From Promethearchaeota archaeon (GTDB lineage Archaea; Asgardarchaeota; Thorarchaeia; Thorarchaeales; Thorarchaeaceae): DNA of 32,000 nt. This document shows, piece by piece, positions 19,092 through 32,000 of the stretch. The stretch is taken from contig JALVPN010000110.1 of assembly GCA_027031765.1 (NCBI GenBank), positions 73,936-105,935 on the forward strand, in the 5' to 3' direction. A model generated the notes under the pieces. It worked only from the letters and a program-made list of their open reading frames with translations. It searched no databases and was not told where the DNA came from. A program made the position numbers and the translations under genes. Within the stretch, counting starts at the first letter, position 1, and each line of letters starts with the position of its first letter.

Positions 19092-20354
19092 TCATCTCCC
19101 GCCTGCTGACGCACCCATCGCCCTGACAAGCTCGTCCACGGTCGGGCCTATTAGCACTTCTCTCGGGGTGAGCATGTCCACGGTGTCAAGGTCTTTGAAG
19201 CCGGTGCCGGTGACCGGTACCACGACGGTATCTGATGGGTCTATTGTCCCGTCTGATATCAGCGTGTCGACCGCAGCCAGTGCTGCCACCCCGCTTGGTT
19301 CGGCAAACACACCCTCGGTCTGGGCGAGGAGGGTCAAGCTTGCTCTGATACTCTCGTCCGTAACAGTGACCGCCGTGCCATCTCCTATCTTCAGGTACCT
19401 TAGTGCTGCGTCCCCGTCCCAGGGGTAGGGGTCTGCCAGACCACCCGCAACAGTGTCACTTGAGTCCCACGGAGCGATGTCCAGTGGGTCTTGTCCCTCC
19501 TCGAACGCCCTCACAATCGGTGCGCATCCCGAGGGTTGCACGACGACCGGCCGGGGGAGGTCGTCTATCAGTCCCATCTGCTGGAACTCCCACAGCCCCT
19601 TCATTGTCCCGGCCATCAGCCCACCACTGCCCGTAGGGAAGAGGATCCAGTCGGGGGTCGTCCAGTCCATCTGCTCTGCAATCTCGTAGCCCAGGGACTT
19701 GGTGCCCTCAAACTGGAAACAGTTGAAGGGGCCGAAAGATGGTGTTGGTGTCCATCCCAGGTCGTTGCATGCTGCACGCAACAGTGTGGTCGTCGGGTCA
19801 ACACCTTCCTTGACCTTGCGGACCCTGAAGACACGGCCCCCCAGTGTCCGGAGGTGGACTAGCTTTGCAGCGGGTGCGTCCTCTGGCACGAAGACCACAG
19901 CTTGTAGGCCGGCCCTTGCAGCATAGGTGGCCATGGATGCGGCTGCGTTCCCTGATGATGCAACTGCCACCGTGTCAGCCCCGTCCTCCAACGCCCGTGT
20001 GACGCCGACACATATCGGTCTGTCCTTGAATGACCCTGACGGGTTCATGGTCTCAAGCTTCAGCCATAGGTGCTCTAGGCCCAGCATGCCGCCGAGACGT
20101 CGTGCACGGACAAGGGGCGTAGCCCCTTCACCGAGTGTGACTATTGACCGGCGTTGTCGTACCGGCATGAGTTCGAAGTACTTCCAGAGCCCCCCATATC
20201 TGTGACCGAGTTCCTCCCGTGTCAGGACTTCACGTATGGCCTCAAGGTCAAGTGAAATGTCAATCCTCCCACCGCAGCCATCATTTGGTGGAGCACTACT
20301 GTCGTCGTAGGCCCTGCCGCAGCGGGCACACTGGTACTTGATAGTCCTGTGCAA
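19092..20354 (-). CDS. thrC: Threonine synthase (PLP-dependent, fold type II)
   Basis: TLGEGATPL, LKLETMNPSGSFKDR, ASSGNAAAS, FEGTKSLGYEI, PTGSGG and EGVFAEPSG. Probable TTG start at 20354 after GGAGGTG (the ORF track starts at 20384). Confidence 0.88.
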   Translation of the reverse strand: MHRTIKYQCARCGRAYDDSSAPPNDGCGGRIDISLDLEAIREVLTREELGHRYGGLWKYFELMPVRQRRSIVTLGEGATPLVRARRLGGMLGLEHLWLKLETMNPSGSFKDRPICVGVTRALEDGADTVAVASSGNAAASMATYAARAGLQAVVFVPEDAPAAKLVHLRTLGGRVFRVRKVKEGVDPTTTLLRAACNDLGWTPTPSFGPFNCFQFEGTKSLGYEIAEQMDWTTPDWILFPTGSGGLMAGTMKGLWEFQQMGLIDDLPRPVVVQPSGCAPIVRAFEEGQDPLDIAPWDSSDTVAGGLADPYPWDGDAALRYLKIGDGTAVTVTDESIRASLTLLAQTEGVFAEPSGVAALAAVDTLISDGTIDPSDTVVVPVTGTGFKDLDTVDMLTPREVLIGPTVDELVRAMGASAGGR

Positions 20355-20464
20355 TGCACCACCTCCCACTAGGACTGTTGCCAAGTATTTGAATCAGATG
20401 GAAATGCCTATCACCACCTCTGTACACGTTGGATACCACCCTACAAGAGTCGAAGTGCCTACAC

Positions 20465-21049
20465 ATGATCGGGCCAACAAGATATGAGGTAGAACTCAAG
20501 ATTCCTGTCCGTTCTCTTGGGCCAGTGTCACAGCGTCTGCAGCAACTCGGTGCCACACGTCGTGGTACTGTGACCCATATGGACGAGTACTATGCCCACC
20601 CGTGTCGTTCCTTCCAGCAGACTGATGAGGCCCTCCGCCTCCGGGCCTCCTTTGACGGTGTGCTGGGACCAGACGCAGTGACAGCAGCCCCCTCTCGTGT
20701 CACTCTCACCTATAAGGGCCCACGGATTGGCGGCCGGTCAAAGACACGTACCGAGTTTGATGTCGGTGTGACGGACATGGTGTCTGCAAGGAGTATCCTG
20801 TTGTCCCTCGGCTTCAAGCACATAGCCACCGTCACAAAGCACCGCACACTATACGTCCTCGGCGATTCGGTCGTCACCCTCGATACGGTGCCAGAGCTGG
20901 GCAGCTTTGTTGAGCTGGAGCGCGTGGTGGGGACGCGTCCAGAGGTCGATGTGGTGCTCGCCAGACTGGCCGAGACCGCACAGGAGCTGGGCCTGGACCC
21001 CTCTGCTGCTGTACGTGACTCATACCTTGAGATGCTCCTCCGACGGTAG
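20465..21049 (+). CDS. cyaB: CYTH-domain protein (class IV adenylate cyclase CyaB / triphosphate tunnel metalloenzyme)
   Basis: EVELK, DEYYAHPCRSF, DEALRLR, LTYKGP, KTRTEF, VTKHRTLY and LDTVPELGSFVELE; probable ATG start at 20465. Confidence 0.88.
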   Translation: MIGPTRYEVELKIPVRSLGPVSQRLQQLGATRRGTVTHMDEYYAHPCRSFQQTDEALRLRASFDGVLGPDAVTAAPSRVTLTYKGPRIGGRSKTRTEFDVGVTDMVSARSILLSLGFKHIATVTKHRTLYVLGDSVVTLDTVPELGSFVELERVVGTRPEVDVVLARLAETAQELGLDPSAAVRDSYLEMLLRR

Positions 21050-21652
21050 GTCCTGCCCCGCCTCCCTGAGTTCGGCCTTCAGCTGTCTGACAAACTCCTG
21101 CAGCAACCGGTGCCGGTCCCGCGCCATCTCCCTCGCAATATCGGTGTACAGCATGCTCCTGAGTCTCACCAGCTTCTCGTCTGCGTGTTTCAAGAACCCC
21201 TCTATGTTGCTTCTTGTCATAGTGGCCTCTGCAATGGCCCTGAAGACCCCCAGTGCCCCCATGGCGTCGAGTTTGTCGGCATCGCTCAGGACCCGCCCCT
21301 CAAGTGACCTCGGCCTGAGCCCCTCGCTGAACCTGTGTGTCCTGATGGCGCCCAGCACAGCTCTGATTTCGTCCGGCGTGTATCCCAGCCTCTCAAGCAA
21401 TCCCCTGCTCATCTCTCCCGCTATGATGGCATGCGAGATGCCTGTCCTTGCCTCCTGCGGTCTTGCAATGTCATGAAGGAGTGCCGCAGTGCCGAGCACC
21501 CTCAGGTTGGCACCGAGCCTCTTGCCAATCTCCATAGCAAGTGCGTACACCCTGCGTGTATGGTCGTAGTGGTGGGCCCCCTCTAGCCCGTAGAGGCAGC
21601 GCCTGACAAACTCGTCAATCTCTCTCTCAGGAAATGTAGTAGTGTACGTCAT
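21020..21652 (-). CDS. HD-domain metal-dependent phosphohydrolase
   Basis: AHHYDHTRRV, AALLHDIAR, IRTHRFS and LSDADKLDAMGALGVFR; probable ATG start at 21652; overlaps the 3' end of the CYTH gene by 30 bp. Confidence 0.9.
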   Translation of the reverse strand: MTYTTTFPEREIDEFVRRCLYGLEGAHHYDHTRRVYALAMEIGKRLGANLRVLGTAALLHDIARPQEARTGISHAIIAGEMSRGLLERLGYTPDEIRAVLGAIRTHRFSEGLRPRSLEGRVLSDADKLDAMGALGVFRAIAEATMTRSNIEGFLKHADEKLVRLRSMLYTDIAREMARDRHRLLQEFVRQLKAELREAGQDLPSEEHLKV

Positions 21653-21798
21653 AGACCGCCCCCGTGGTAGTTGGTGTGCCTTTCGAATTCTCGAAGACGT
21701 CTCTGCAAGAAACCCTTTAATTCGTTGTCTTTGAATGGTCATGAGGACAGTCTGTGTCCTGCGCCTCTCCACAGCTGCTTGTTGTGAGGTATGACTCG

Positions 21799-24700
21799 TT
21801 GAGCGCCGAAACTGTCACCAAACGAAAAGTGGGTCTGGGCACGCTAATCAGCTCCATATTCCTGATTGCCACAGTGGTATGGGGAGCTTACTCCCTGATC
21901 CTCGTAGAAGGTGGCTATGTGCGGGCCGAAACGCCCCACGAGAAGTATGACCGGGTTGAACCATGGCCGTACAACATCGACTGGGCGGGTGGGCACCGTT
22001 TCTGGTTTGACAACCTCAACTATAGTGGCCTCAATATGAACGACCCGTTGCCGCCAGACCTGCTCAACAACGACACATTTGACACCACACTGTTTGTAGT
22101 GTCTCCAGTTGACCCACCGCAGCTGTGGCGGAGCAGTGCGTTCGACGACTATGACGGGCATACATGGTCAAAGAGCATGAACAGCTCGTCCCCGGTCACA
22201 CCAATCACGCGGTCTGATGCAGAGGCCCTCGGTAACACAATCTACACGGTCTATCTCAATATTACTGCCGGGCCAAATGTGGGGAGCATTGAACTGCCAA
22301 TCCTGTTTCCCGAGATACAGATTGTTGACGGCTCCCTCCATGCATATCCTGAGGAGCGGCTCCTGGAGTATTCTCTCCAGACTGATGACTACAACACGCT
22401 ACTGTTCAACCCCCTTGTAGAGGGTGAAACCGGGTCGTCCCTCCTCGTGAGTTTCGATGTCACATATACCGTACAGGACCTTGCATACATTGCTCAGAAC
22501 GCGCTGACAAAAGACCGCGTCCCCCCCTCAGTCCGTGACACGTACGCCACCCTCAACATCGAGCTGTCGGACAATGTCCTCAACGAGATCTCTCAGTTCG
22601 ACAGCGTGGGTTCCAACGTATACGAGACCGCCATGGCCGTACAGGCCTACTTTGCTATGAACTATGAGCTCAAGCTCGAACAGTACCAGGAACGGCCCGG
22701 GCCGGATGAGGAGGTGACGGACTGGTTCATCCAGCGTGGCGGTGGTCTTCCGATGGACTTTGCCACCGCCTACTGTGTGTTCATGAGGGCACTGGGAATT
22801 CCCGCGCGAGTGGTATATGGCTTCGCCGTGGGCGACAGGGTCAACGACGAGCACCGGGCAATCAAAGTCAAACACATGATGTTCTGGGCGGAAGTGTATG
22901 TGCCACTCGTCGGCGGCGGCCAGTGGGTCCAGGTCTTGCCACTACCTGTCCCAGAGGTGCCAGAGAACACAGCTCACGGCAACCTTGTCCTTCACGTGTT
23001 CCCCGACATTGACCCGCCGTGGACTATGATTGGCACTGGGTTCAACCTCAACGCAGTCCTCTTGGCCGACTCCGTGCCCACAGGTATCGGGGCCGCAATC
23101 ACGTTCGCTGACGAAACAGATGAGGTTCCGATTGGCACGGCAATAATCCAGGACTTTGGTGGCACCCCGATGGCAAGGATTGAGTACACGTTTCCCGAAG
23201 GCGCAACTGCCGGGCCACACAACATCTCTGCCACCTACTACTCGTCGACCGGTGTCGTGAGGGGCTCCACTTTGGTGTATGCAGTTGCGCAGCCGGAACC
23301 CCTGAATGACCGGGTGCCACCACCGGCGCGCGATGGGCCTGGGGCTACGGCTGACGGCTTTGTAGTCTCGGATACAATAGATGTGAACATCAAGCTGGCA
23401 CTGGACAACTACACTGCATACTGGGAAGACACAATCCATGTGCACGGTGTCCTGACGTACGGTGGCAACCCCGTCGATGGTACCACCCTGAACAACGACC
23501 AGATGGAGATATACTGGGACGGCGAGTGGTGGGGGAATGCGACAATTCAGGCCGACGGGAGCTATGCGCTCGACATCTATGCCGACCCGGCTGATGTCAG
23601 TAGGATGCGGCTCGGCCAGCATGAGATCTACTCGTACTATGCTGGCGAGGTCGACCCCGTGACGGGCTTCCCAATCTATCTCCCTGCAACATCGGACACC
23701 TCGGTCGTCACCCTCCATGGCAGAACGCGTTTCAACCTGCAGGTCTCACCGAACCCGGCTGGCCGGCGTGCTACTCTGCGTTACGAGGGACGCCTGGAAC
23801 TGCTCAACGGGACGCCCCTCCCGGGCCGAACGGTATCGGCATGGTTCAACTTCAGTACTGTTGACACGGTCGTCACAAACAGCACTGGGGGCTTTACTGC
23901 AGAGTATGTAGTCCCCGACGACCACCCACCTGGCACCTTCCCCGCAAACATGAGCTGGTCATCAAATGTCCCCCTAGTTGACAGCTCGTCCAGTGAAACT
24001 GTATGGGTTGATATCATTGCTATCAGTACAGTCCTGACCATCAACTCCACACCAAAGGATCCATCAGTAGTCCACATCCACGAGAACATCACCATCTTCG
24101 GCTACCTCAGGGCCAATAATGGCACCGGGCTGCCTGGCCTGCCAGTATCAATATGGTGGCATGGTTCAATCATTGCGAACGTGACTACTGGGGCCGATGG
24201 CTACTATGAGTACGAGTATCAGGTGCCAGCCGGATACGAGGGCATTGTCAACTACTTCACGAGCTTCGACCAGCCTGGTAGTGGGTATGAGCCCAGCACA
24301 TCTGACACCCTCCAAATCCGTGTACAGAAGTGGCGAGCTGAAGTACACATCACAGTTACATCAGGGCCACTGCGGCTACTGCAGAACGTGACTATCCAGG
24401 GCTATGTGTTACTGCCGGAGGGCCCGTTGCTCCTTGGCAATGCAAGGGTGACAATCTGGTGGGCATCATCGTCGGGTACGCAGAACCTCACGGCCGCAGT
24501 GACTGACAGTGCAACCGGCATCTTCACGTACAACTACACAGTCCCCATTGACCACCCGTTCGGCACGGTCACGATTACCGGCGAGTTCGTTTCCCCCTCC
24601 GTTGAGATTGTGAGCAACACCTCACTGCCAGAGTACCGTGTTGTGACGAACTACGCCACCGTACTCTCAGGACAGTCGAATGCCACAGCCTACTACCTCA

Positions 24701-27700
24701 ACGAGACCGTGTACATATCCGGTCGTCTCACGTTCGAGCATAATGGGTCTGGCATTGGTGGCCAGACACTCTCTCTCCGGTGGGACAACGGCACTGTGCA
24801 GACCTTTGACGTGACCACCAACGCCACCGGGTACTTTGAGTTCACCTATCCGCTGTTGCTCACAGATGGGCCCGCAGCGCTCCATGTGACAATCAACTTC
24901 ACGGCACCGTCTAGGTTGTTCAATGGTTCGGTGACCACACTGGACATCACACTCCGGCTCTATGACACCAGTTTTGCGACCGCCCTGAACAGCACGGAGT
25001 ACCATCTCGACGAGGTCTTGGAGTTCTCGGGGACGCTCCGTTTCACCGAGAGCATGAAGCCCATCGCTGGTGCCACCGTTTCAGTCTTCTACAAGAATGC
25101 AACGGGCACCTACCAGTTCGTCAAGGTCACGGACTCGTCCGGGTCTTTTGTCTTCCACTACAACTTCTCACTGAGTGATGCTCTGGGCGCAATATACCTC
25201 TGGGCGTGGTACAACAGCACCGACCCGCTCTGGGACGACGCACTTTCAGCAAATGAGACCGCGACCCTGATCCTGTACAGGTTCACACTCACCTTGTCCA
25301 CCAATGCCACGCGCTACCACCTCAACGAGACCGCTCATGTGTGGGGTCGTCTAGTCTTCGAACATAATGGCACTGCTCTCTCCGGCCAACAAATCCGCAT
25401 CTGGTGGGGCAACGGCACGGTACCGACGCCGGTGTTCGAGTGGTACGTGACGGACGCGTCCGGCTACTTCCAGTTCTACTACAACTTCACGACCGCAGAT
25501 GCTGTCACCGACATAACTGTGCAGGCCGAGTTCATCAACGCGAACCCGTTGTGGGACAACGCCACATCCACACCGAAGACTATCAACACACAACTGTACC
25601 AGTTCGTGTTGACCCTGTTCCTTAACGATACCTACTACTATCTGAATGAGACCGCACTTGTCTGGGGCCGTCTCACATATCAGGCCAATGGCGCCCCTGT
25701 GAGTGGCCAGCAGATACGCATCTGGTGGGACAACGGCACGGTGCCGACGCCGGTGTTCGAGTGGTACGTGACGAACGCGTCCGGCTACTTCCAGTTCTAC
25801 TACAACTTCACGACCGCAGATGCTGTCACCGACATAACTGTGCAGGCCGAGTTCATCAACGCGAACCCGTTGTGGGACAATGCCACATCGTCGCCTGCAG
25901 TAGTCGACACGAGGCTCTACGCATTTGTCCTAACAGTCTTTGCAAATGAAACCGCCTACTATCTCAACCAGACCGTATATATCTGGGGCCGTCTCACGTA
26001 CCAAGAGAATGGAGCACCTGTTACCAATCAGCAGGTCCGCATCTGGTGGGACAACGGCACGGTACCGACGCCGGTGTTCGAGTGGTACGTGACGAACGCA
26101 TCCGGCTACTTCCACTTCTACTATCCTCTCTCGACCAACGATGCTGTCGGCACTGTCGTGGTCACTGCAGAGTTCATCAACACGAACCCGCTATGGGACA
26201 ACGCGACATCAAGCGGACTGTCGATTGACCTGCAGCTGTATCAACTCAATTTGACAATTAGTATTCCTGCCAATGCATTCTTGGCTGAGGGTGTTACAAT
26301 GCAGGGTACACTGACATATGCTGGCGGCTCGCCACCGTTTGCTGGTGCCACCGTGAACATATACCTCCTGCAGGGGACGACGTGGGTGACAGTGGGCTCG
26401 TGCATCACGAACTCTTCAGGTCACTTCTCGTTCACATACAACTTTACTGTGCCACCAGACGGGCCTGGTGTGTACCGTTTCAAGTTCAACACGACTACTG
26501 GACCACTATACAATGACACTGAGAGCGGGCCATACGACGTCGACGTCACGCGGTACACGGTCGTCGTCGACCTTGTCCTGAGCTCTACCTCTCCGCATCT
26601 GAACGAGACGATTGTGTTCACAGTGCATGCGTACTTCTCCCACAATGGGTCAGCACTGCAGGGTGCCGAAATCCTGCTTGTCTGGTACAACGACACCGAG
26701 CACGTAGTCCAACACCTCGTAACGAACAGCACGGGTCACGCCGTCTGGACGGCCTCCGGCTTTCACGACCACACATTCCTCACGGGAATCCTTGTGTGGG
26801 CCCACTATGCTGGCAACGACATAATCGACGCCGCAAACTCGACATCGCAGTCTGTGTCCCTCCGCCGGTGGGTGACTGCAGTCCAGTCCTTCAGTACGGG
26901 CGGTGTGTCCGACGTCCATGCATTTGACATCGTCCAGATCACTGGTCAGCTCGTATACGACTTGGGTGGCGGTTCCACGGTCCCGTTTGTCGGGGCCCAG
27001 GTGGAGGTGCTACTGAACGGCACGGTCGTTGCAGTTGTCAATACCCTCGGTGATGGCAGTTTTGCAGTCGACTGGCTCGTGCCAGCAGATACCGTTGCGG
27101 GGTACTATGAACTGACGGCGAGGTTCGTGTCCACTGTCAACTGGATTGAGAACTGTAGCAGTCCCTCCCTAGGCCTCCGTGTCGTCCAGTACGACCTGGA
27201 TGTAGACATTGAGGTGACACCGGGGCATGTGTATCTCACGTCGCAGCTCAACATTACGACTGTGCTCACACTGAGCAATGGCACTCCCTATGCCAACGCC
27301 CCTGTGGCACTGTACTGGAACCACCTCAACGATGACGGGGGCCCACAACTGATTGCAGTTGTAATGACCGACCAGTACGGCAAGTTGACCTATCTGTTCC
27401 AGGTCCCAGAGTCCGTGCCACTGGGCGCCACCAGCGTGTGGGCGAACTGCACCCCACCGGTCACATACATCAGCTCATCCCAGTCTGCAGTCATCGACAT
27501 ACAGGTCTTACAGATGTCCGTATGCCTGTCCATCGAGTCACAACAGTACTCCGTAGGAGTCGGTGACACGCTGACCATCACCGGGACCATACTGATGTGC
27601 AACGGCACCCCGCTGTCTGGATATCCTGTGGAGTTCTGGTGGACGAACACTTCCAGAGTCCTGATTGGTACTGTGACGAGTGGTCCTGATGGCTCGTTCA

Positions 27701-28887
27701 CGTTCGAATTTGACATCCCGTGGCGACACCAGGTGGGCCCTGTGGCATGCAATACGGTGTTCGTCAGCACTAGGGCTGCACTGGCAACGAACAGCAGCAA
27801 CACTCTGGCACTCACCATCACACATGCTGTGTGGGTCGAACTCGACGACCAGACGGTGTTCGAGCTGACCCCCGGTGACATCCTCACAGTATCTGGTGTG
27901 GTCATGGATGCCTTTGGCCCCATCCCGGACTTCACCATAGACGTGATGGCGAATGGGAGTGTCGTGGCCCAGTCGAGCTCGTTCTCAGGTGACGGCTCGT
28001 TCTCGGTCTCGTTCACAGTCAGTCCATCCGTCCCCCTCGGGAGGTACATAATCGTGGTTGCAGTGAGCAACGAGTACTTTGTGACAACACATAGTGACAC
28101 TTGGATGGTACTGGTCACACTGCCGACGTCCCTGTCAGTCACTGTTTCGAGTCCTTCTGCCCTCATGCCTGGTGAGTCGTTCACGGTTTCGGTGTCCCTC
28201 CGTGACGCCCGTGACGACCCGGTGGGTCAGGCGACAGTCATCCTCTATTTGACCAACAACGATACCGAGATAGTCCTGGGCACCTTTGAGACCGACGACG
28301 AGGGCACTGTGTTCACCACCTCTGTTGTACCGTCCTCGTTCACGGCAGATGGCATCTTCTGGGTACGGGCAGAGTTCCAGGGTGTGGACTTCCGGCGGGA
28401 CAGCGAAGACATCTCGCCCACACCCGTCCACGTCTTCACCGACGTACGTGTGACTAACCTGACCCCATCTGTTGTGCAGGTCAACAGCACGTTCCAGATC
28501 CGGTTCAACCTGACTGATGTGAACGGCATACCTATTGAGAGGCGTCCTGTTGAGATACACCTCGACAACACGACGTTCCAGACCATCACTTCCCGTGACG
28601 GCCTTGTCGAGTTCACGGTGCAGGCGCCGGGACACGAGGGTGTGATGCACTACTACGTAGTCGTGCCGTCCTCGGTTGCAGAAGACCTCCAGTCAGAAGA
28701 GTTCACAATCTCTGTGAGTGCAGGAGTGACCTCAGGCCTCGTGATGGTGTATGTATCTATCACCGCAATTGTTATTGAGGCTGTAGTTGCAATTGTGTTG
28801 GTGATACGACACAGGCGCTCACATGTCCACTATGTGACTGTGTCCTCCAAGGGGACGCGAACAGCTACTCTAAGTGGCACTCTGTGA
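21799..28887 (+). CDS. Giant membrane-anchored surface protein: N-terminal TM/signal, TgpA-like (pseudo)transglutaminase domain, long array of ~105-aa Ig-like beta repeats, C-terminal TM
   Basis: Hydrophobic segment GLGTLISSIFLIATVVWGAYSLILV; LWRSSAFDDYDGHTW; MRALGIPARVVYGF...WAEVYVP; recurring Y[YH]L[ND]ET..G.L modules with many N-x-S/T sequons; C-terminal LVMVYVSITAIVIEAVVAIVLVIRHRR. Probable TTG start at 21799 after GAGGT (the ORF track starts at 21754). Confidence 0.85.
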   Translation: MSAETVTKRKVGLGTLISSIFLIATVVWGAYSLILVEGGYVRAETPHEKYDRVEPWPYNIDWAGGHRFWFDNLNYSGLNMNDPLPPDLLNNDTFDTTLFVVSPVDPPQLWRSSAFDDYDGHTWSKSMNSSSPVTPITRSDAEALGNTIYTVYLNITAGPNVGSIELPILFPEIQIVDGSLHAYPEERLLEYSLQTDDYNTLLFNPLVEGETGSSLLVSFDVTYTVQDLAYIAQNALTKDRVPPSVRDTYATLNIELSDNVLNEISQFDSVGSNVYETAMAVQAYFAMNYELKLEQYQERPGPDEEVTDWFIQRGGGLPMDFATAYCVFMRALGIPARVVYGFAVGDRVNDEHRAIKVKHMMFWAEVYVPLVGGGQWVQVLPLPVPEVPENTAHGNLVLHVFPDIDPPWTMIGTGFNLNAVLLADSVPTGIGAAITFADETDEVPIGTAIIQDFGGTPMARIEYTFPEGATAGPHNISATYYSSTGVVRGSTLVYAVAQPEPLNDRVPPPARDGPGATADGFVVSDTIDVNIKLALDNYTAYWEDTIHVHGVLTYGGNPVDGTTLNNDQMEIYWDGEWWGNATIQADGSYALDIYADPADVSRMRLGQHEIYSYYAGEVDPVTGFPIYLPATSDTSVVTLHGRTRFNLQVSPNPAGRRATLRYEGRLELLNGTPLPGRTVSAWFNFSTVDTVVTNSTGGFTAEYVVPDDHPPGTFPANMSWSSNVPLVDSSSSETVWVDIIAISTVLTINSTPKDPSVVHIHENITIFGYLRANNGTGLPGLPVSIWWHGSIIANVTTGADGYYEYEYQVPAGYEGIVNYFTSFDQPGSGYEPSTSDTLQIRVQKWRAEVHITVTSGPLRLLQNVTIQGYVLLPEGPLLLGNARVTIWWASSSGTQNLTAAVTDSATGIFTYNYTVPIDHPFGTVTITGEFVSPSVEIVSNTSLPEYRVVTNYATVLSGQSNATAYYLNETVYISGRLTFEHNGSGIGGQTLSLRWDNGTVQTFDVTTNATGYFEFTYPLLLTDGPAALHVTINFTAPSRLFNGSVTTLDITLRLYDTSFATALNSTEYHLDEVLEFSGTLRFTESMKPIAGATVSVFYKNATGTYQFVKVTDSSGSFVFHYNFSLSDALGAIYLWAWYNSTDPLWDDALSANETATLILYRFTLTLSTNATRYHLNETAHVWGRLVFEHNGTALSGQQIRIWWGNGTVPTPVFEWYVTDASGYFQFYYNFTTADAVTDITVQAEFINANPLWDNATSTPKTINTQLYQFVLTLFLNDTYYYLNETALVWGRLTYQANGAPVSGQQIRIWWDNGTVPTPVFEWYVTNASGYFQFYYNFTTADAVTDITVQAEFINANPLWDNATSSPAVVDTRLYAFVLTVFANETAYYLNQTVYIWGRLTYQENGAPVTNQQVRIWWDNGTVPTPVFEWYVTNASGYFHFYYPLSTNDAVGTVVVTAEFINTNPLWDNATSSGLSIDLQLYQLNLTISIPANAFLAEGVTMQGTLTYAGGSPPFAGATVNIYLLQGTTWVTVGSCITNSSGHFSFTYNFTVPPDGPGVYRFKFNTTTGPLYNDTESGPYDVDVTRYTVVVDLVLSSTSPHLNETIVFTVHAYFSHNGSALQGAEILLVWYNDTEHVVQHLVTNSTGHAVWTASGFHDHTFLTGILVWAHYAGNDIIDAANSTSQSVSLRRWVTAVQSFSTGGVSDVHAFDIVQITGQLVYDLGGGSTVPFVGAQVEVLLNGTVVAVVNTLGDGSFAVDWLVPADTVAGYYELTARFVSTVNWIENCSSPSLGLRVVQYDLDVDIEVTPGHVYLTSQLNITTVLTLSNGTPYANAPVALYWNHLNDDGGPQLIAVVMTDQYGKLTYLFQVPESVPLGATSVWANCTPPVTYISSSQSAVIDIQVLQMSVCLSIESQQYSVGVGDTLTITGTILMCNGTPLSGYPVEFWWTNTSRVLIGTVTSGPDGSFTFEFDIPWRHQVGPVACNTVFVSTRAALATNSSNTLALTITHAVWVELDDQTVFELTPGDILTVSGVVMDAFGPIPDFTIDVMANGSVVAQSSSFSGDGSFSVSFTVSPSVPLGRYIIVVAVSNEYFVTTHSDTWMVLVTLPTSLSVTVSSPSALMPGESFTVSVSLRDARDDPVGQATVILYLTNNDTEIVLGTFETDDEGTVFTTSVVPSSFTADGIFWVRAEFQGVDFRRDSEDISPTPVHVFTDVRVTNLTPSVVQVNSTFQIRFNLTDVNGIPIERRPVEIHLDNTTFQTITSRDGLVEFTVQAPGHEGVMHYYVVVPSSVAEDLQSEEFTISVSAGVTSGLVMVYVSITAIVIEAVVAIVLVIRHRRSHVHYVTVSSKGTRTATLSGTL
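25315..26277 (+). repeat. Three tandem 321-bp (107-aa) intragenic repeats with near-identical cores
   Basis: The CGCATCTGGTGG core starts at 25396, 25717 and 26038 (period 321); 25396-25568 versus 25717-25889 differ at only 4 of 173 positions. Confidence 0.95.
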
Positions 28888-28894
28888 TGCGTGG

Positions 28895-29350
28895 ATGGTG
28901 GTACTGGTGCAGATTGGGTCTGTCTTGCCGTTCGTTGCCCTTGCGGGCGCGGTGATTGTTGTACTGCTCTACCTGTACTATGTCAAGGGGATGTTCCGTG
29001 TGGCGCCCCGTGCTGTCAAACTTGACCTTGCAGGCAAGATGCGGAACATCAAGAAACTCATGGATGCTGGGAAGTATGCTGCAGCAATCACCCTTGCCTA
29101 CCGGACATTCGAGCAGATGTGTGGCGCACGGATTGGTTCAGAGCGTACCAATTCCGAGACCGCCCGCGAGTACATCGAACGTGTACTCAAGGTAATCCCC
29201 CTCGACCCAGTGGCCGTTGACGCATTCACCTCTGTCTACGAGGAGGCACGGTTCTCAGGTCACGAGATTACAAGGGAACAGTGCGAATATGCAATCCGTG
29301 TGTTCACTGACCTGTACCCCAAGGTCGACCTCAGTATCGCCACGGAATAG
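28895..29350 (+). CDS. DUF4129-domain membrane protein
   Basis: N-terminal TM, then AAAITLAYRTFEQ...SETAREY...FTSVYEEARFSGHEIT; probable ATG start at 28895. Confidence 0.85.
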   Translation: MVVLVQIGSVLPFVALAGAVIVVLLYLYYVKGMFRVAPRAVKLDLAGKMRNIKKLMDAGKYAAAITLAYRTFEQMCGARIGSERTNSETAREYIERVLKVIPLDPVAVDAFTSVYEEARFSGHEITREQCEYAIRVFTDLYPKVDLSIATE

Positions 29351-29360
29351 CTGGTGACCC

Positions 29361-30755
29361 GTGATGGGATTGAAAGAGACCGTTCAGATTTCGTTGTTCA
29401 TTCTCTCGTGGGTGCCCATCGGTTTCCTAGTGGGGGCCACAGTGTTCAACGTGAACTCCACATACTCGTATGACTTCTCAATCTACAACAACGACTGGAA
29501 CGGACTCAGCAACTTCCGTAATGCCATAGAAGACAGTGGCCACGAGGTGTACTCCATTCAGACCTCGATGAGCGTTATTTCAAGGTACAATGGTTCAGCG
29601 GTGCTGGTCATCATGGGCCCCGTGAAGGACTTCAGCATAGACACGGTGTTCACGATATTCAACCACATCATGGCCGGGGGTCGCGTGCTCATAGCCGACG
29701 ACTTCGGGACGGCTAACTCGTCCTTCTACTGGCTGAACAACTACCTGGCAGGAGTCCTTGGTGCCCAGCTCCCTGAGGGAATCCATGGCTTTGTGTCCTT
29801 CACCGGTGGTGTCCTGCTCGACCTGGACTCGTACGAGGTCAGCCCCAAGCTCCCCGTAATCCGGCACTTTGCGGCCGGTTCCGACAACGGTGCAATTACC
29901 GCCGGTGTGCACGAGGTGTACCTGAACTGGGCATCGACCCTGAGTCCGAGGTGCCTGCTAGGTGCCTTCGGGATTGCCTGGACCACTCGTAGGGCGTGGT
30001 GCGAGTCCAACATCACTGACCCAAACCCGTACCCGGACGAGGGCGAGTGGGCAGGCGTACTACCTGTTGCCGGTGCTCTCTCCGTACCCACAGATGGCCC
30101 CCGCGACGGACGGCTCGTGGCCGTGAGCGACCCGAGCCTGTTCAACAATGATATGTGGGACCGTGGTGACAACGCGCGTTTCGCCATGAACATCATCGAC
30201 TGGCTGACCAATGGTGACCCGGACATCCCTGTGGTGTTCTGCGAGCACTTGTTGGAAGTCCCGGTCACGTCCGCTGAGTTCTTCTATGGCATTTACTTGT
30301 CAAGGGCCCTGTGGATGACCACCCAGCCACTCCTTGCACCAATGTACCCGATGGTCACACTGGTCGGCATCAAGAAGTATCTCCCGGACATGAAGAAGCC
30401 AGAGGTGCGGAGCGTTTCTGAGGTGTTCCTGCGACGGGGCCAGACGTACTTCTCTGAGCGCCTGCAGTATTACCGGACGGAGGGGAACTATGCCCGCGTA
30501 GTGAGGATGATATACCGCAAGCTGCGTCGAGATATAAGGCGGACGTACATGTGGTCCGACTTTGATGTCGCCAAGGTCTGGGAGATAATGCATGCCAAAG
30601 ACCCCTCCCTCAAACAGAGCGACTTCTTCAGGACAATTGAGCGGATTGAAGAGATAAGCTCCAAGTCCGGGATGAAGATCCGGGAGAATGAACTGATGAA
30701 CCTGTTCTTCTTCATGCGTGATATCTCAGCAAAGCTCGTAGAGTCAAGAATGTGA
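29361..30755 (+). CDS. DUF4350-domain membrane protein
   Basis: TM segment, FSIYNNDWNGLSNF, GGRVLIADDFGTANS, GRLVAVSDPSLFNNDM and a second TM; start is GTG 29361 or ATG 29364. Confidence 0.8.
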   Translation: MMGLKETVQISLFILSWVPIGFLVGATVFNVNSTYSYDFSIYNNDWNGLSNFRNAIEDSGHEVYSIQTSMSVISRYNGSAVLVIMGPVKDFSIDTVFTIFNHIMAGGRVLIADDFGTANSSFYWLNNYLAGVLGAQLPEGIHGFVSFTGGVLLDLDSYEVSPKLPVIRHFAAGSDNGAITAGVHEVYLNWASTLSPRCLLGAFGIAWTTRRAWCESNITDPNPYPDEGEWAGVLPVAGALSVPTDGPRDGRLVAVSDPSLFNNDMWDRGDNARFAMNIIDWLTNGDPDIPVVFCEHLLEVPVTSAEFFYGIYLSRALWMTTQPLLAPMYPMVTLVGIKKYLPDMKKPEVRSVSEVFLRRGQTYFSERLQYYRTEGNYARVVRMIYRKLRRDIRRTYMWSDFDVAKVWEIMHAKDPSLKQSDFFRTIERIEEISSKSGMKIRENELMNLFFFMRDISAKLVESRM

Positions 30756-30756
30756 G

Positions 30757-31752
30757 GTGTTAGAAGAGATGACACAGAGTATGCCCGGCAGTAGTACCAG
30801 AGGAACACCATCCATGACAATCGATGAGGTCCATGCCCTCTCCTCGGAGATCATCCGGGAGTGTAACAGAGTCATTGTTGGCAAGGGGGAGATACTGACA
30901 AACATCCTCATTGCCTTCCTGTCCAATGGTCACGTTGTACTTGAGGGCGTCCCCGGTCTGGCAAAGACCTACATGGCACGGACATTTGCCTCAATCCTCG
31001 GCTGTGCCTTCAAGCGGATTCAACTCACCGTTGACACGTTGCCCGCAGACATCCTCGGGAGCAATGTGTTCAACCAGAAGAGCGGTGAGTTCTGGTTCCG
31101 CAAGGGGCCGGTGTTTGCCAACCTTGTCCTTGCCGACGAGATAAACCGGTGTCCCCCGAAGTCGCAGAGTGCCCTCCTTGAGGTGATGGAAGAACGTCAG
31201 GTCTCTATTGAGGGTGTGACCAGGAAGCTACCAGAGCCGTTCCTGATAATTGCCACACAGAACCCCGTTGAGCAGGAGGGCACATACCCCCTTCCCGAGG
31301 CCCAGCTTGACAGGTTCATGTTCAGGCTTATACTGGACTACCCGACCAGCAGCGAGGAGGCCGAGATTGTCCGGCGGAAGCACATCGGTGAGGTGACCGA
31401 CCTGCGTGTCCTCGCGGATCCGGCAACTATCATAGCCATGCAGAGGACCTGTCAGACCGTCTACCTCGACGAGGACATCATCAACTACATCCGTGACATC
31501 ATCGTCCGCACACGCAATGACCCCCAAATCCTGCTCGGCGGCTCTCCAAGAGCGTCCATCGTCCTGATGTCCGCATCAAAGACCCGGGCTGCCATGCACG
31601 GCCGTGACTATGTGATACCAGAAGATGTCAGGAAACTGACAGTCCAGGCGCTGAACCACCGGCTGATACTGAAGCCCGAGGCCGAGCTGGAAGGGCAGAC
31701 AGTAGAGCGAGTGATTGCAAAGATCCTCGGCGAAGTGGACTGTCCAAGGTAG
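30757..31752 (+). CDS. moxR: MoxR family AAA+ ATPase (MoxR-proper type)
   Basis: GHVVLEGVPGLAKT, LPADILG, LVLADEINRCPPKSQSALLEVMEERQVS, ATQNPVEQEGTYPLPEAQLDRF and GGSPRAS; the start could be further in (30769 or 30814). Confidence 0.96.
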   Translation: MLEEMTQSMPGSSTRGTPSMTIDEVHALSSEIIRECNRVIVGKGEILTNILIAFLSNGHVVLEGVPGLAKTYMARTFASILGCAFKRIQLTVDTLPADILGSNVFNQKSGEFWFRKGPVFANLVLADEINRCPPKSQSALLEVMEERQVSIEGVTRKLPEPFLIIATQNPVEQEGTYPLPEAQLDRFMFRLILDYPTSSEEAEIVRRKHIGEVTDLRVLADPATIIAMQRTCQTVYLDEDIINYIRDIIVRTRNDPQILLGGSPRASIVLMSASKTRAAMHGRDYVIPEDVRKLTVQALNHRLILKPEAELEGQTVERVIAKILGEVDCPR

Positions 31753-31778
31753 TCGACCGATGGTATGAGGAATGTCCG

Positions 31779-32000
31779 GTGATTACGCAGAGGGGCTTTG
31801 TGGTACTGTTTGCAGGCATCCTTCTCCTCACATCGGGGTTCTCCTTCGTGAACTACTACCTAGTAGTCCTTGGGGTCTACCTCATTGTCGGTCTGGTGGT
31901 GTCCTTGCCCCTCTTCGCTGCCACCGCGAACATCTCTGGTATCGAGGTGGAGCGTACTGTTGACAAGACCAAGGTGTTCTCGGGCGACTTCCTCCGCGTG
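31779..32000 (+). CDS. DUF58-domain (vWA-like) protein, N-terminal part; runs off the window edge
   Basis: Not in the ORF track. GTG at 31779 gives MITQRGFVVLFAGILLLTSGFSFVNYYLVVLGVYLIVGLVVSLPLFAATANISGIEVERTVDKTKVFSGDFLRV: two TMs, then V.R....RVF.G, as in DUF58 genes that follow moxR. Confidence 0.75.
   Translation, partial: MITQRGFVVLFAGILLLTSGFSFVNYYLVVLGVYLIVGLVVSLPLFAATANISGIEVERTVDKTKVFSGDFLRV

Follow-up and report, generated by a model that had tools for sequence, protein, structure and literature searches.

The window, a stretch of 32,000 nucleotides from contig JALVPN010000110.1 of a Promethearchaeota archaeon (positions 73,936 to 105,935, forward strand; assembly GCA_027031765.1), contains at its end five of the six genes of what appears to be one conserved Asgard envelope module. 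Its core would be a membrane protein of the TgpA type that has been both stretched and split, the former C-terminal DUF4129 domain of the giant protein g1 being now a membrane-tethered protein, g2. A trans-membrane platform would be formed by g1 and g2, by g3, a bitopic DUF4350 protein, and by g6, the product of the sixth gene. A TgpA-like platform of this kind, serviced by the ATPase MoxR (g4) and the DUF58 protein (g5), is the likeliest reading of the cluster, put forward tentatively and with somewhat less than even confidence. It is based on synteny, topology and family knowledge, from which we infer the motor, folding and display roles discussed below.

Layout and conservation of the cluster

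ORF calling gave five successive open reading frames (ORFs) on the + strand between 21.7 and 32.0 kb of the window, g1 to g5. The public gene call for g1 begins at TTG 21799 and gives a protein of 2362 aa, whereas a start at GTG 21754 would give 2377 aa. The features of the cluster, including those that lie past the window end, are the following (TM, transmembrane segment; HMM, hidden Markov model):

21799..28887 (alternative start 21754), + strand: g1, giant TgpA-like surface protein (ORF, public gene call, orthologues)
21829..21885, + strand: N-terminal hydrophobic helix of g1, residues 26–44, after a KRK stretch (Kyte–Doolittle)
21886..23373, + strand: head of g1, TgpA-like ectodomain (AlphaFold2 model, PDB fold match)
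22612..22935, + strand: Transglut_core of g1, residues 287–394, triad lost (Pfam, TgpA alignment)
23386..28695, + strand: stalk of g1, 17 tandem Ig-like repeats, residues 545–2314 (iterated HMM, Pfam)
25382..26210, + strand: youngest part of the stalk, repeats 7–9 (Tandem Repeats Finder)
28726..28803, + strand: C-terminal anchor helix of g1 with an embedded Glu, then a basic tail (hydropathy, orthologue alignment)
28874..29350, + strand: g2, DUF4129 protein, candidate starts 28874, 28895 and 28907 (Pfam)
29361..30755, + strand: g3, DUF4350 (arCOG01314-type) protein (Pfam)
30757..31752, + strand: g4, MoxR-proper AAA+ ATPase (Pfam, motifs)
31779..32000, + strand: g5, first 74 residues of DUF58, a two-TM hairpin (hydropathy; continuation read beyond the gap)
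L002 2012-3115, ending at window-equivalent 33115, + strand: remainder of DUF58 (Pfam)
L002 3112-4491, window-equivalent 33112-34491, + strand: g6, polytopic membrane protein (ORF; a 459-aa gene call agrees)

The intergenic spacing is −14 nt for g1/g2 (+7 or +19 if the later g2 starts are used), 10 nt for g2/g3, 1 nt for g3/g4 and 26 nt for g4/g5, and the sixth conserved gene, encoding the 459 aa of g6, begins at a TTG that overlaps the TGA stop of DUF58 (TTGA). The overlaps, that of DUF58/g6 included, and the gaps, none of them above 26 nt, suggest one transcription unit, and the cluster is probably co-transcribed. Kyte–Doolittle hydropathy places hydrophobic anchor helices in four of the five proteins, namely g1 (at both ends), g2, g3 and DUF58 (an N-terminal hairpin), MoxR being without one. 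All six cluster genes are single-copy in the genome of the window. NCBIfam contains no named family for g1, g2, g3 or DUF58.

The cluster is conserved far outside this genome. All 20 regions fetched from relatives contain the head and tail of the giant, DUF4129, DUF4350, MoxR, DUF58 and g6, in this order and on one strand. A search with a DUF4350 alignment yielded 80 named Asgard loci, spanning Thorarchaeota, Hermod-, Odin-, Baldr-, Jord- and Freyarchaeota and Asgardarchaeum; as far as their contigs reach, all 80 keep the same order and strand, and 44 contain the whole string from the head to g6. The recurrence of this order and strand in the 20 regions and 80 loci is far beyond chance. The head is present in 35 of 41 related genomes (24 of the 25 of good quality), and g1 orthologues measure 1955–2405 aa in 22 of 24 genomes of the same family, the stalk length ranging between orthologues from 1180 to 2405 aa. 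Orthologue identity decreases from MoxR (79–89%) and DUF58 (78–86%) through DUF4350 (57–69%), DUF4129 (51–69%) and g6 (50–62%) to the head (42–52%) and the tail, that is the stalk end (26–31%), a gradient that fits the order expected for a cytoplasmic core as against an exposed surface.

An earlier note, made from the letters of the window, had described five co-oriented and tightly packed genes, four of them membrane-anchored, and had named their products as a giant transglutaminase-like protein, DUF4129, DUF4350, MoxR and DUF58; the ORFs, their spacing, hydropathy and Pfam bear this out. Its five members stand, but it overlooked g6. Similarly, the domains of the giant and of g2 were correctly named, but they were not recognized as a TgpA-type protein with an inserted Ig stalk. 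The note had staked its proposal on a consistent link of the giant gene to moxR/DUF58 in relatives, and the 20 regions and 80 loci display that link.

The giant protein and its former DUF4129 domain

The giant protein g1 contains, from the N- to the C-terminus, a TM, a TgpA-like transglutaminase head, 17 Ig-like repeats and a second TM. Pfam recognizes a Transglut_core domain at residues 287–394 (E 5.7e-15), besides many (a dozen) Ig-like families. Residues 45–540 yielded a confident AlphaFold2 model (predicted local distance difference test score, pLDDT, 86.7), in which the head is composed of a β-sandwich, a transglutaminase-like core and one Ig domain. The best PDB match of this model found by Foldseek is the periplasmic domain of Pseudomonas aeruginosa TgpA (6g49; E 6.9e-12, TM-score 0.65 by target). 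The ecto part of TgpA_N (profile positions 210–290) aligns with the region preceding the core at E 7.4e-7 and 28.9 bits, below the cut-off of 30, and the multi-TM TgpA_N domain is absent from g1, which according to its hydropathy has a single N-terminal helix only.

Residue alignment to TgpA 6g49 places Pro333 at the position of the catalytic Cys, Met376 at that of the His and Leu395 at that of the Asp. The same positions contain P, M (or Leu/Phe/Tyr) and an aliphatic or aromatic residue in 13 of 13 orthologues of the same family, D/H/E in a sister family and S or G, H and D in several other Asgard lineages, with C/H/D in one Asgard lineage (locus L032). An equal spread of triad states was found among the 150 best representatives from a library of 1.8 billion proteins. 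On sequence grounds, then, the head is a pseudo-transglutaminase arrived at by stepwise decay of the triad, as the graded states across Asgard indicate; the inactivity claimed for it in the earlier note is upheld by the alignment and by the orthologues. The segment of the former active site (GGGLPMDFATAY) is strongly conserved within the family, which suggests a binding role for the dead head. Erythrocyte protein 4.2, found at ranks 7–9 of the fold matches, also has a transglutaminase fold without catalysis that is used for binding; the likeness is an analogy only: protein 4.2 is a eukaryotic protein of the cytoplasm without a membrane stalk, and not closely related.

Comparison of g1 with itself by BLASTP gave the identity match alone, and the repeats were therefore defined with an HMM iterated on g1. 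It yielded 17 Ig-like units of the prealbumin/CarboxypepD_reg type at residues 545–2314. Repeats 7–9, which have the highest mutual scores among the Ig units, are encoded by 2.6 copies of a 321-bp unit with 82% matches (Tandem Repeats Finder). The protein contains 72 N-x-S/T sequons, compared with 22.6 ± 4.2 in 2000 shuffles, an enrichment of about threefold that fits a heavily N-glycosylated extracellular stalk. The extended stalk would be about 60–70 nm long, and among the glycoproteins on the cell g1 is probably the largest. In g1 Pfam sees the Ig-like repeats and the dead enzyme head only, and none of the known adhesive domains. Single-copy and near-universal in the family, g1 looks more like a core component of the envelope than like an accessory adhesin.

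At the N-terminus, all orthologues keep a basic stretch followed by a long hydrophobic one, which is either a signal anchor or an uncleaved TM. The C-terminal helix carries a motif, W..I..E..V..RYR, that is conserved in the g1 orthologues with a separate DUF4129 gene and absent from the fused ones described below. The conserved Glu of this helix (28726-28803) is embedded in the membrane; such residues often mark helix–helix assembly with a partner.

The second protein, g2, matches DUF4129 (Pfam, E 1.3e-12). It has one N-terminal TM followed by a helical domain, with basic residues after the TM and no sequons at all. These two features, together with the existence of a soluble form in some lineages, predict a cytoplasmic location for DUF4129. 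In fused orthologues the stop-to-stop ORF of the giant continues into DUF4129 in the order stalk, one TM, DUF4129, and they share with TgpA the order transglutaminase, TM, DUF4129. Fusion was found in 46 of the 72 scorable Asgard loci, in agreement with the earlier note, which had stated that DUF4129 is separate here although often fused. The fused set comprises all nine scorable loci outside the Thorarchaeota family of the window and 37 of the 63 Thor-type loci; the 26 split loci are all Thor-type.

The split occurs in two forms. In that of the window, the giant acquires an extra C-terminal helix with the conserved Glu, a basic tail and a stop, and DUF4129 retains the old TM. In the other (8 of the 26 split loci: L062, L076, L078, L079, L080, L082, L083 and L085, a separate Thorarchaeota group), the TM stays on the giant and DUF4129 is a soluble protein of ~130 aa that begins MGFRES or MGLREA and has no TM. 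A programmed frameshift or a sequencing error at the g1/g2 junction was considered and rejected: the extra helix, its Glu and the basic tail are kept in about 20 independent assemblies, and the split is therefore real. A tree of concatenated DUF4350, MoxR and DUF58 (FastTree, support values not inspected) groups the split forms and leaves the number of fission events unsettled. The two routes of fission fit a separable cytoplasmic module. In a closed Thorarchaeota chromosome (CP070761.1, locus L054), the DUF4129-bearing ORF has just 1171 aa and no head was found within 10 kb upstream of it; a truncation or interruption of the giant gene is possible in this chromosome.

The ATPase, its putative membrane partners and the flanking genes

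The third protein, g3, matches DUF4350 (E 3.5e-14) and, just over its cut-off, ABC_transp_aux (E 1.1e-8). It contains an N-terminal TM or signal, an extracellular GldG-like domain, a second hydrophobic segment (~306–336) and a conserved cytoplasmic tail of 125 aa, and it is conserved over its whole length across Asgard. The extracellular location of the DUF4350 domain is predicted from the sequons of g3, all four of which lie within residues 32–217. The cytoplasmic tail was considered as a second DUF4129, which could not be established: BLASTP gave E 0.08 over 12 residues, and hhalign a probability of 4% and E 0.011 over 65 co-linear columns. Residues 74–112 of g3 match the GIFT domain of IFT52 weakly (E 0.0047, under the cut-off), a likeness suspected to reflect a shared GldG/GIFT-type fold and not an Asgard-specific link. 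Elsewhere in the genome there are eight more DUF4350-like matches (for example G000:C106:3550-3975), in ORFs of 398–1357 aa; one of these ORFs has an in-frame TGA, and none adjoins a MoxR or DUF58 gene.

The ATPase g4 matches AAA_3 (E 4.6e-63) and AAA_lid_2 (E 4.6e-23), and bpMoxR much more weakly (E 5.9e-12). Its motifs are intact, with Walker A at residue 64, Walker B at 125, sensor 1 at 166, an Arg at 184 and sensor 2 at 261. It is the sole MoxR of the genome, without a paralogue at E<1e-4.

The 74 residues of g5 that lie in the window gave no Pfam match on their own. Directly past the window end, inside the gene, there is a scaffold gap of 10 N (32001-32010) that shifts the apparent frame. 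The reading past the window that had been proposed in the earlier note recovered the rest of the protein after this gap, with matches to DUF58 (E 1.5e-34) and VWA_2 (E 3e-10). The two halves are contiguous and in frame in 19 relatives, with essentially nothing missing at the gap; the gene is thus whole and the frame break an assembly artefact. The one public sequencing run in which this DNA was found, no RNA run being among those listed, is a hydrothermal-vent metagenome, possibly its source. No contig bridging the gap was found in this run, whose contigs stop at L002 2000 and resume at L002 2024 with similar depth on either side. Another run of 10 N occurs on the same contig, at C110:30980-30989. 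DUF58 is unique in the genome, and the DSSGS motif of its metal ion-dependent adhesion site (MIDAS) is intact at residue 170 of the C part. Complex prediction for this C part with the DUF4129 domain gave a score of 0.00, which counts neither for nor against a contact.

In the sixth protein, g6, some six hydrophobic helices occur together with a helical cytoplasmic domain of ~110 aa, which is conserved, and a tail rich in Lys, Arg and Glu. Pfam and NCBIfam gave no family for g6, and there was neither a PDB match at E≤0.001 nor a meaningful Atlas match by features or shape; its model is moderately confident (pLDDT 71.6). A profile search yielded 271 relatives, of which the named ones are all hypothetical proteins of Thorarchaeota or other Asgard. 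Within the family, the tails of g6 end in a conserved acidic and aromatic motif resembling DEWDRALEE, a candidate ligand for the MIDAS site of DUF58.

Upstream of the cluster, an HD-domain hydrolase (21020-21652) and a PLP (pyridoxal phosphate)-dependent enzyme (19092-20384) are encoded on the − strand and transcribed away from g1. The spacer of ~100 bp between them and g1 (~21653-21753) contains TTTAAT, an A/T-rich element that may be the TATA box of g1. Downstream, 13 nt past g6, lies the gene of a 330-aa DHH/DHHA1 phosphoesterase, weakly RecJ-like (L002 4505-5497, window-equivalent 34505-35497), followed by profilin genes. The phosphoesterase gene is kept beside g6 in 38 of the 59 informative Thor-type loci and may be co-transcribed with the cluster; beyond the family it lies outside the conserved core. 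No candidate cargo gene is conserved beside the cluster, its flanks, unrelated to it, being the HD hydrolase, the DHH phosphoesterase and profilin.

Mechanism and alternatives

The moxR-DUF58-tgpA genes of P. aeruginosa (PA2875-PA2874-PA2873) are co-transcribed, and tgpA is essential (PMC3507681). As in that operon (PDB 6g49/6g4h), MoxR-proper and DUF58 adjoin here a membrane protein with an extracytoplasmic transglutaminase-like domain, and the head is the best match to TgpA 6g49 in both sequence and fold. The TM and cytoplasmic DUF4129 that come after this domain in TgpA are found at the C-terminus of the fused orthologues; in the window DUF4129 is a separate, adjacent gene. TgpA, however, has an intact triad and is an active transglutaminase in vitro; its N-terminal domain is multi-TM, and it is without an Ig stalk. 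In g1 the triad is lost, the N-terminus has one TM and 17 Ig-like domains precede the anchor; DUF4350 and the Asgard-only g6 have been added to the cluster, and the giant gene comes first in the order. Archaeal neighbourhoods of arCOG01314 (DUF4350) with MoxR, vWA and Ig-like membrane proteins have been predicted to encode a membrane complex (Makarova, Galperin and Koonin 2015, PMC5898192). The present cluster resembles them, with a DUF4350 protein that has an N-terminal signal or TM and a later TM, beside a COG0714 MoxR, a vWA protein and Ig-bearing membrane proteins; the function given for that set is a prediction. Its description predates the Asgard genomes, is without the TgpA-like pseudo-transglutaminase head, DUF4129 and the g6 family, and places the vWA protein outside the cell.

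In the TgpA-like platform reading, the membrane-tethered DUF58 would most likely dock the MoxR hexamer, via the MIDAS site of its vWA domain, on a cytoplasmic part of the platform; candidate docking sites are DUF4129 and two tails, that of g3 and the acidic one of g6 with its DEWD. Fuelled by ATP, MoxR would act on the platform, assembling, maturing or remodelling it, and by that route on the stalk at the surface. As for the dead head, it would serve for binding or as a scaffold and not as a cross-linking enzyme. We infer the protein contacts, the inside-out direction of action and the output of this scheme. Several points weigh against it. The topology of DUF58 is predicted from charge and hydropathy alone, and Makarova et al. 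held the vWA protein to be likely secreted (PMC5898192), and a secreted protein would have no access to cytoplasmic MoxR. Retention of the N-terminal helix of g1 would leave the 17-domain stalk with its two ends in the membrane, an odd geometry for display. A flow of information from the outside to the inside may also be compatible with the findings, and we know of no substrate or output for any MoxR–DUF58–TgpA system.

Such an opposite flow is the essence of an alternative that is possible but has the balance against it, an outside-in sensor in which the glycosylated Ig stalk and the binding-only head would detect a partner cell, a virus or a surface, pass the signal via the TMs to DUF4129, the g3 tail or g6, and leave MoxR/DUF58 to make the cytoplasmic response. 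It is suggested by analogy with Esr of Actinomycetales, where a MoxR and vWA pair, a surface filament of 14 Ig domains and a transglutaminase that retains it sense epibionts (10.64898/2026.09.08.750141); MoxR with vWA, an Ig-repeat surface filament and a transglutaminase-family protein are common to the present cluster, Esr and the ternary systems (PMC7159879). In addition, the surface parts are the fastest-evolving ones, the stalk is variable in length and some of its repeats are young, as expected where other organisms are met. Esr, however, has a β-propeller sensor tip, kinases, a phosphatase, FHA proteins and an active transglutaminase retaining the filament, none of which is present here: the conserved string contains no kinase, phosphatase, FHA, other effector gene or β-propeller. 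The ATPase, with a much stronger score for AAA_3 (E 4.6e-63) than for the bpMoxR of ternary conflict systems (E 5.9e-12), also differs in type from that of the MoxR-vWA-β-propeller ternary and Esr systems, and, unlike variable defence islands, the cluster is present as a single copy and nearly throughout the family. No Pfam match to a β-propeller, kinase, FHA or toxin was found in g1–g7. The PFNA cluster of Bifidobacterium and the Bat/aerotolerance-type MoxR-DUF58 operons reportedly combine a MoxR-type ATPase, DUF58, a transglutaminase-like gene and an FN3-repeat surface protein; these bacterial sets are said to include a kinase and to be without DUF4350 and g6.

A dedicated machine for secretion or membrane remodelling, with the GldG-like DUF4350 protein, g6 and the Ig-bearing membrane protein as conduit or scaffold, MoxR for energy or assembly control and other proteins as cargo, a role like the one that Makarova et al. 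put forward for the arCOG01314 neighbourhoods, is decidedly unlikely. DUF4350 does occur with MoxR, vWA and Ig-like membrane proteins in many archaea and has been tied to GldG of the gliding/type IX apparatus (PMC5898192), and the ABC_transp_aux match of g3 passes its cut-off. On the other hand, no pore-forming or translocase-like component was recognized, g6 being without a family or structural match, and the cluster has no conserved cargo gene beside it. MoxR ATPases are established as chaperone-like remodellers, not translocation motors. It is very improbable that the head is still an enzyme, for instance a hydrolase using other residues, and that the cluster modifies the envelope chemically as is thought for active TgpA-type proteins. 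The conserved segment GGGLPMDFATAY and the Ser-His-Asp or Cys-His-Asp retained at the triad in several other Asgard lineages speak for such an activity, whereas the window and each of the 13 orthologues of the family have, in place of the triad, Pro, Met (or Leu/Phe/Tyr) and a residue that is aliphatic or aromatic, with no nucleophile or general base at the equivalent positions. That the genes are neighbours without a shared function is barely credible in view of their identical order and strand in 100 of 100 related regions from at least seven named Asgard lineages, their tight spacing with overlapping stop and start codons, and the fusion of DUF4129 to the giant in most lineages.

A broader form of the platform reading, which we regard as unlikely, would hold for nearly all Asgard. 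A cytoplasmic MoxR/vWA motor would be coupled, mechanically or allosterically, to a glycoprotein stalk of 60–70 nm that has a binding-only transglutaminase fold at its tip or root; the coupling would run by way of DUF4129, DUF4350 and a membrane protein found in Asgard only, the whole acting as one trans-envelope machine that builds or controls the surface coat or the cell–cell contacts of these syntrophic archaea. To our knowledge, few prokaryotic gene sets for which no function is known are as widespread as MoxR–DUF58–TgpA modules. The natural variants found here, from C-H-D to P-M-L at the triad and from a fused DUF4129 to one split with its anchor or soluble, imply that catalysis is dispensable; they tell which parts must stay together and supply constructs for binding and ATPase assays. 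The cluster is a candidate for the surface layer or contact structures of Asgard, and, if the broader form were true, the trans-envelope machine would be a core element of surface biology in the closest archaeal relatives of eukaryotes.

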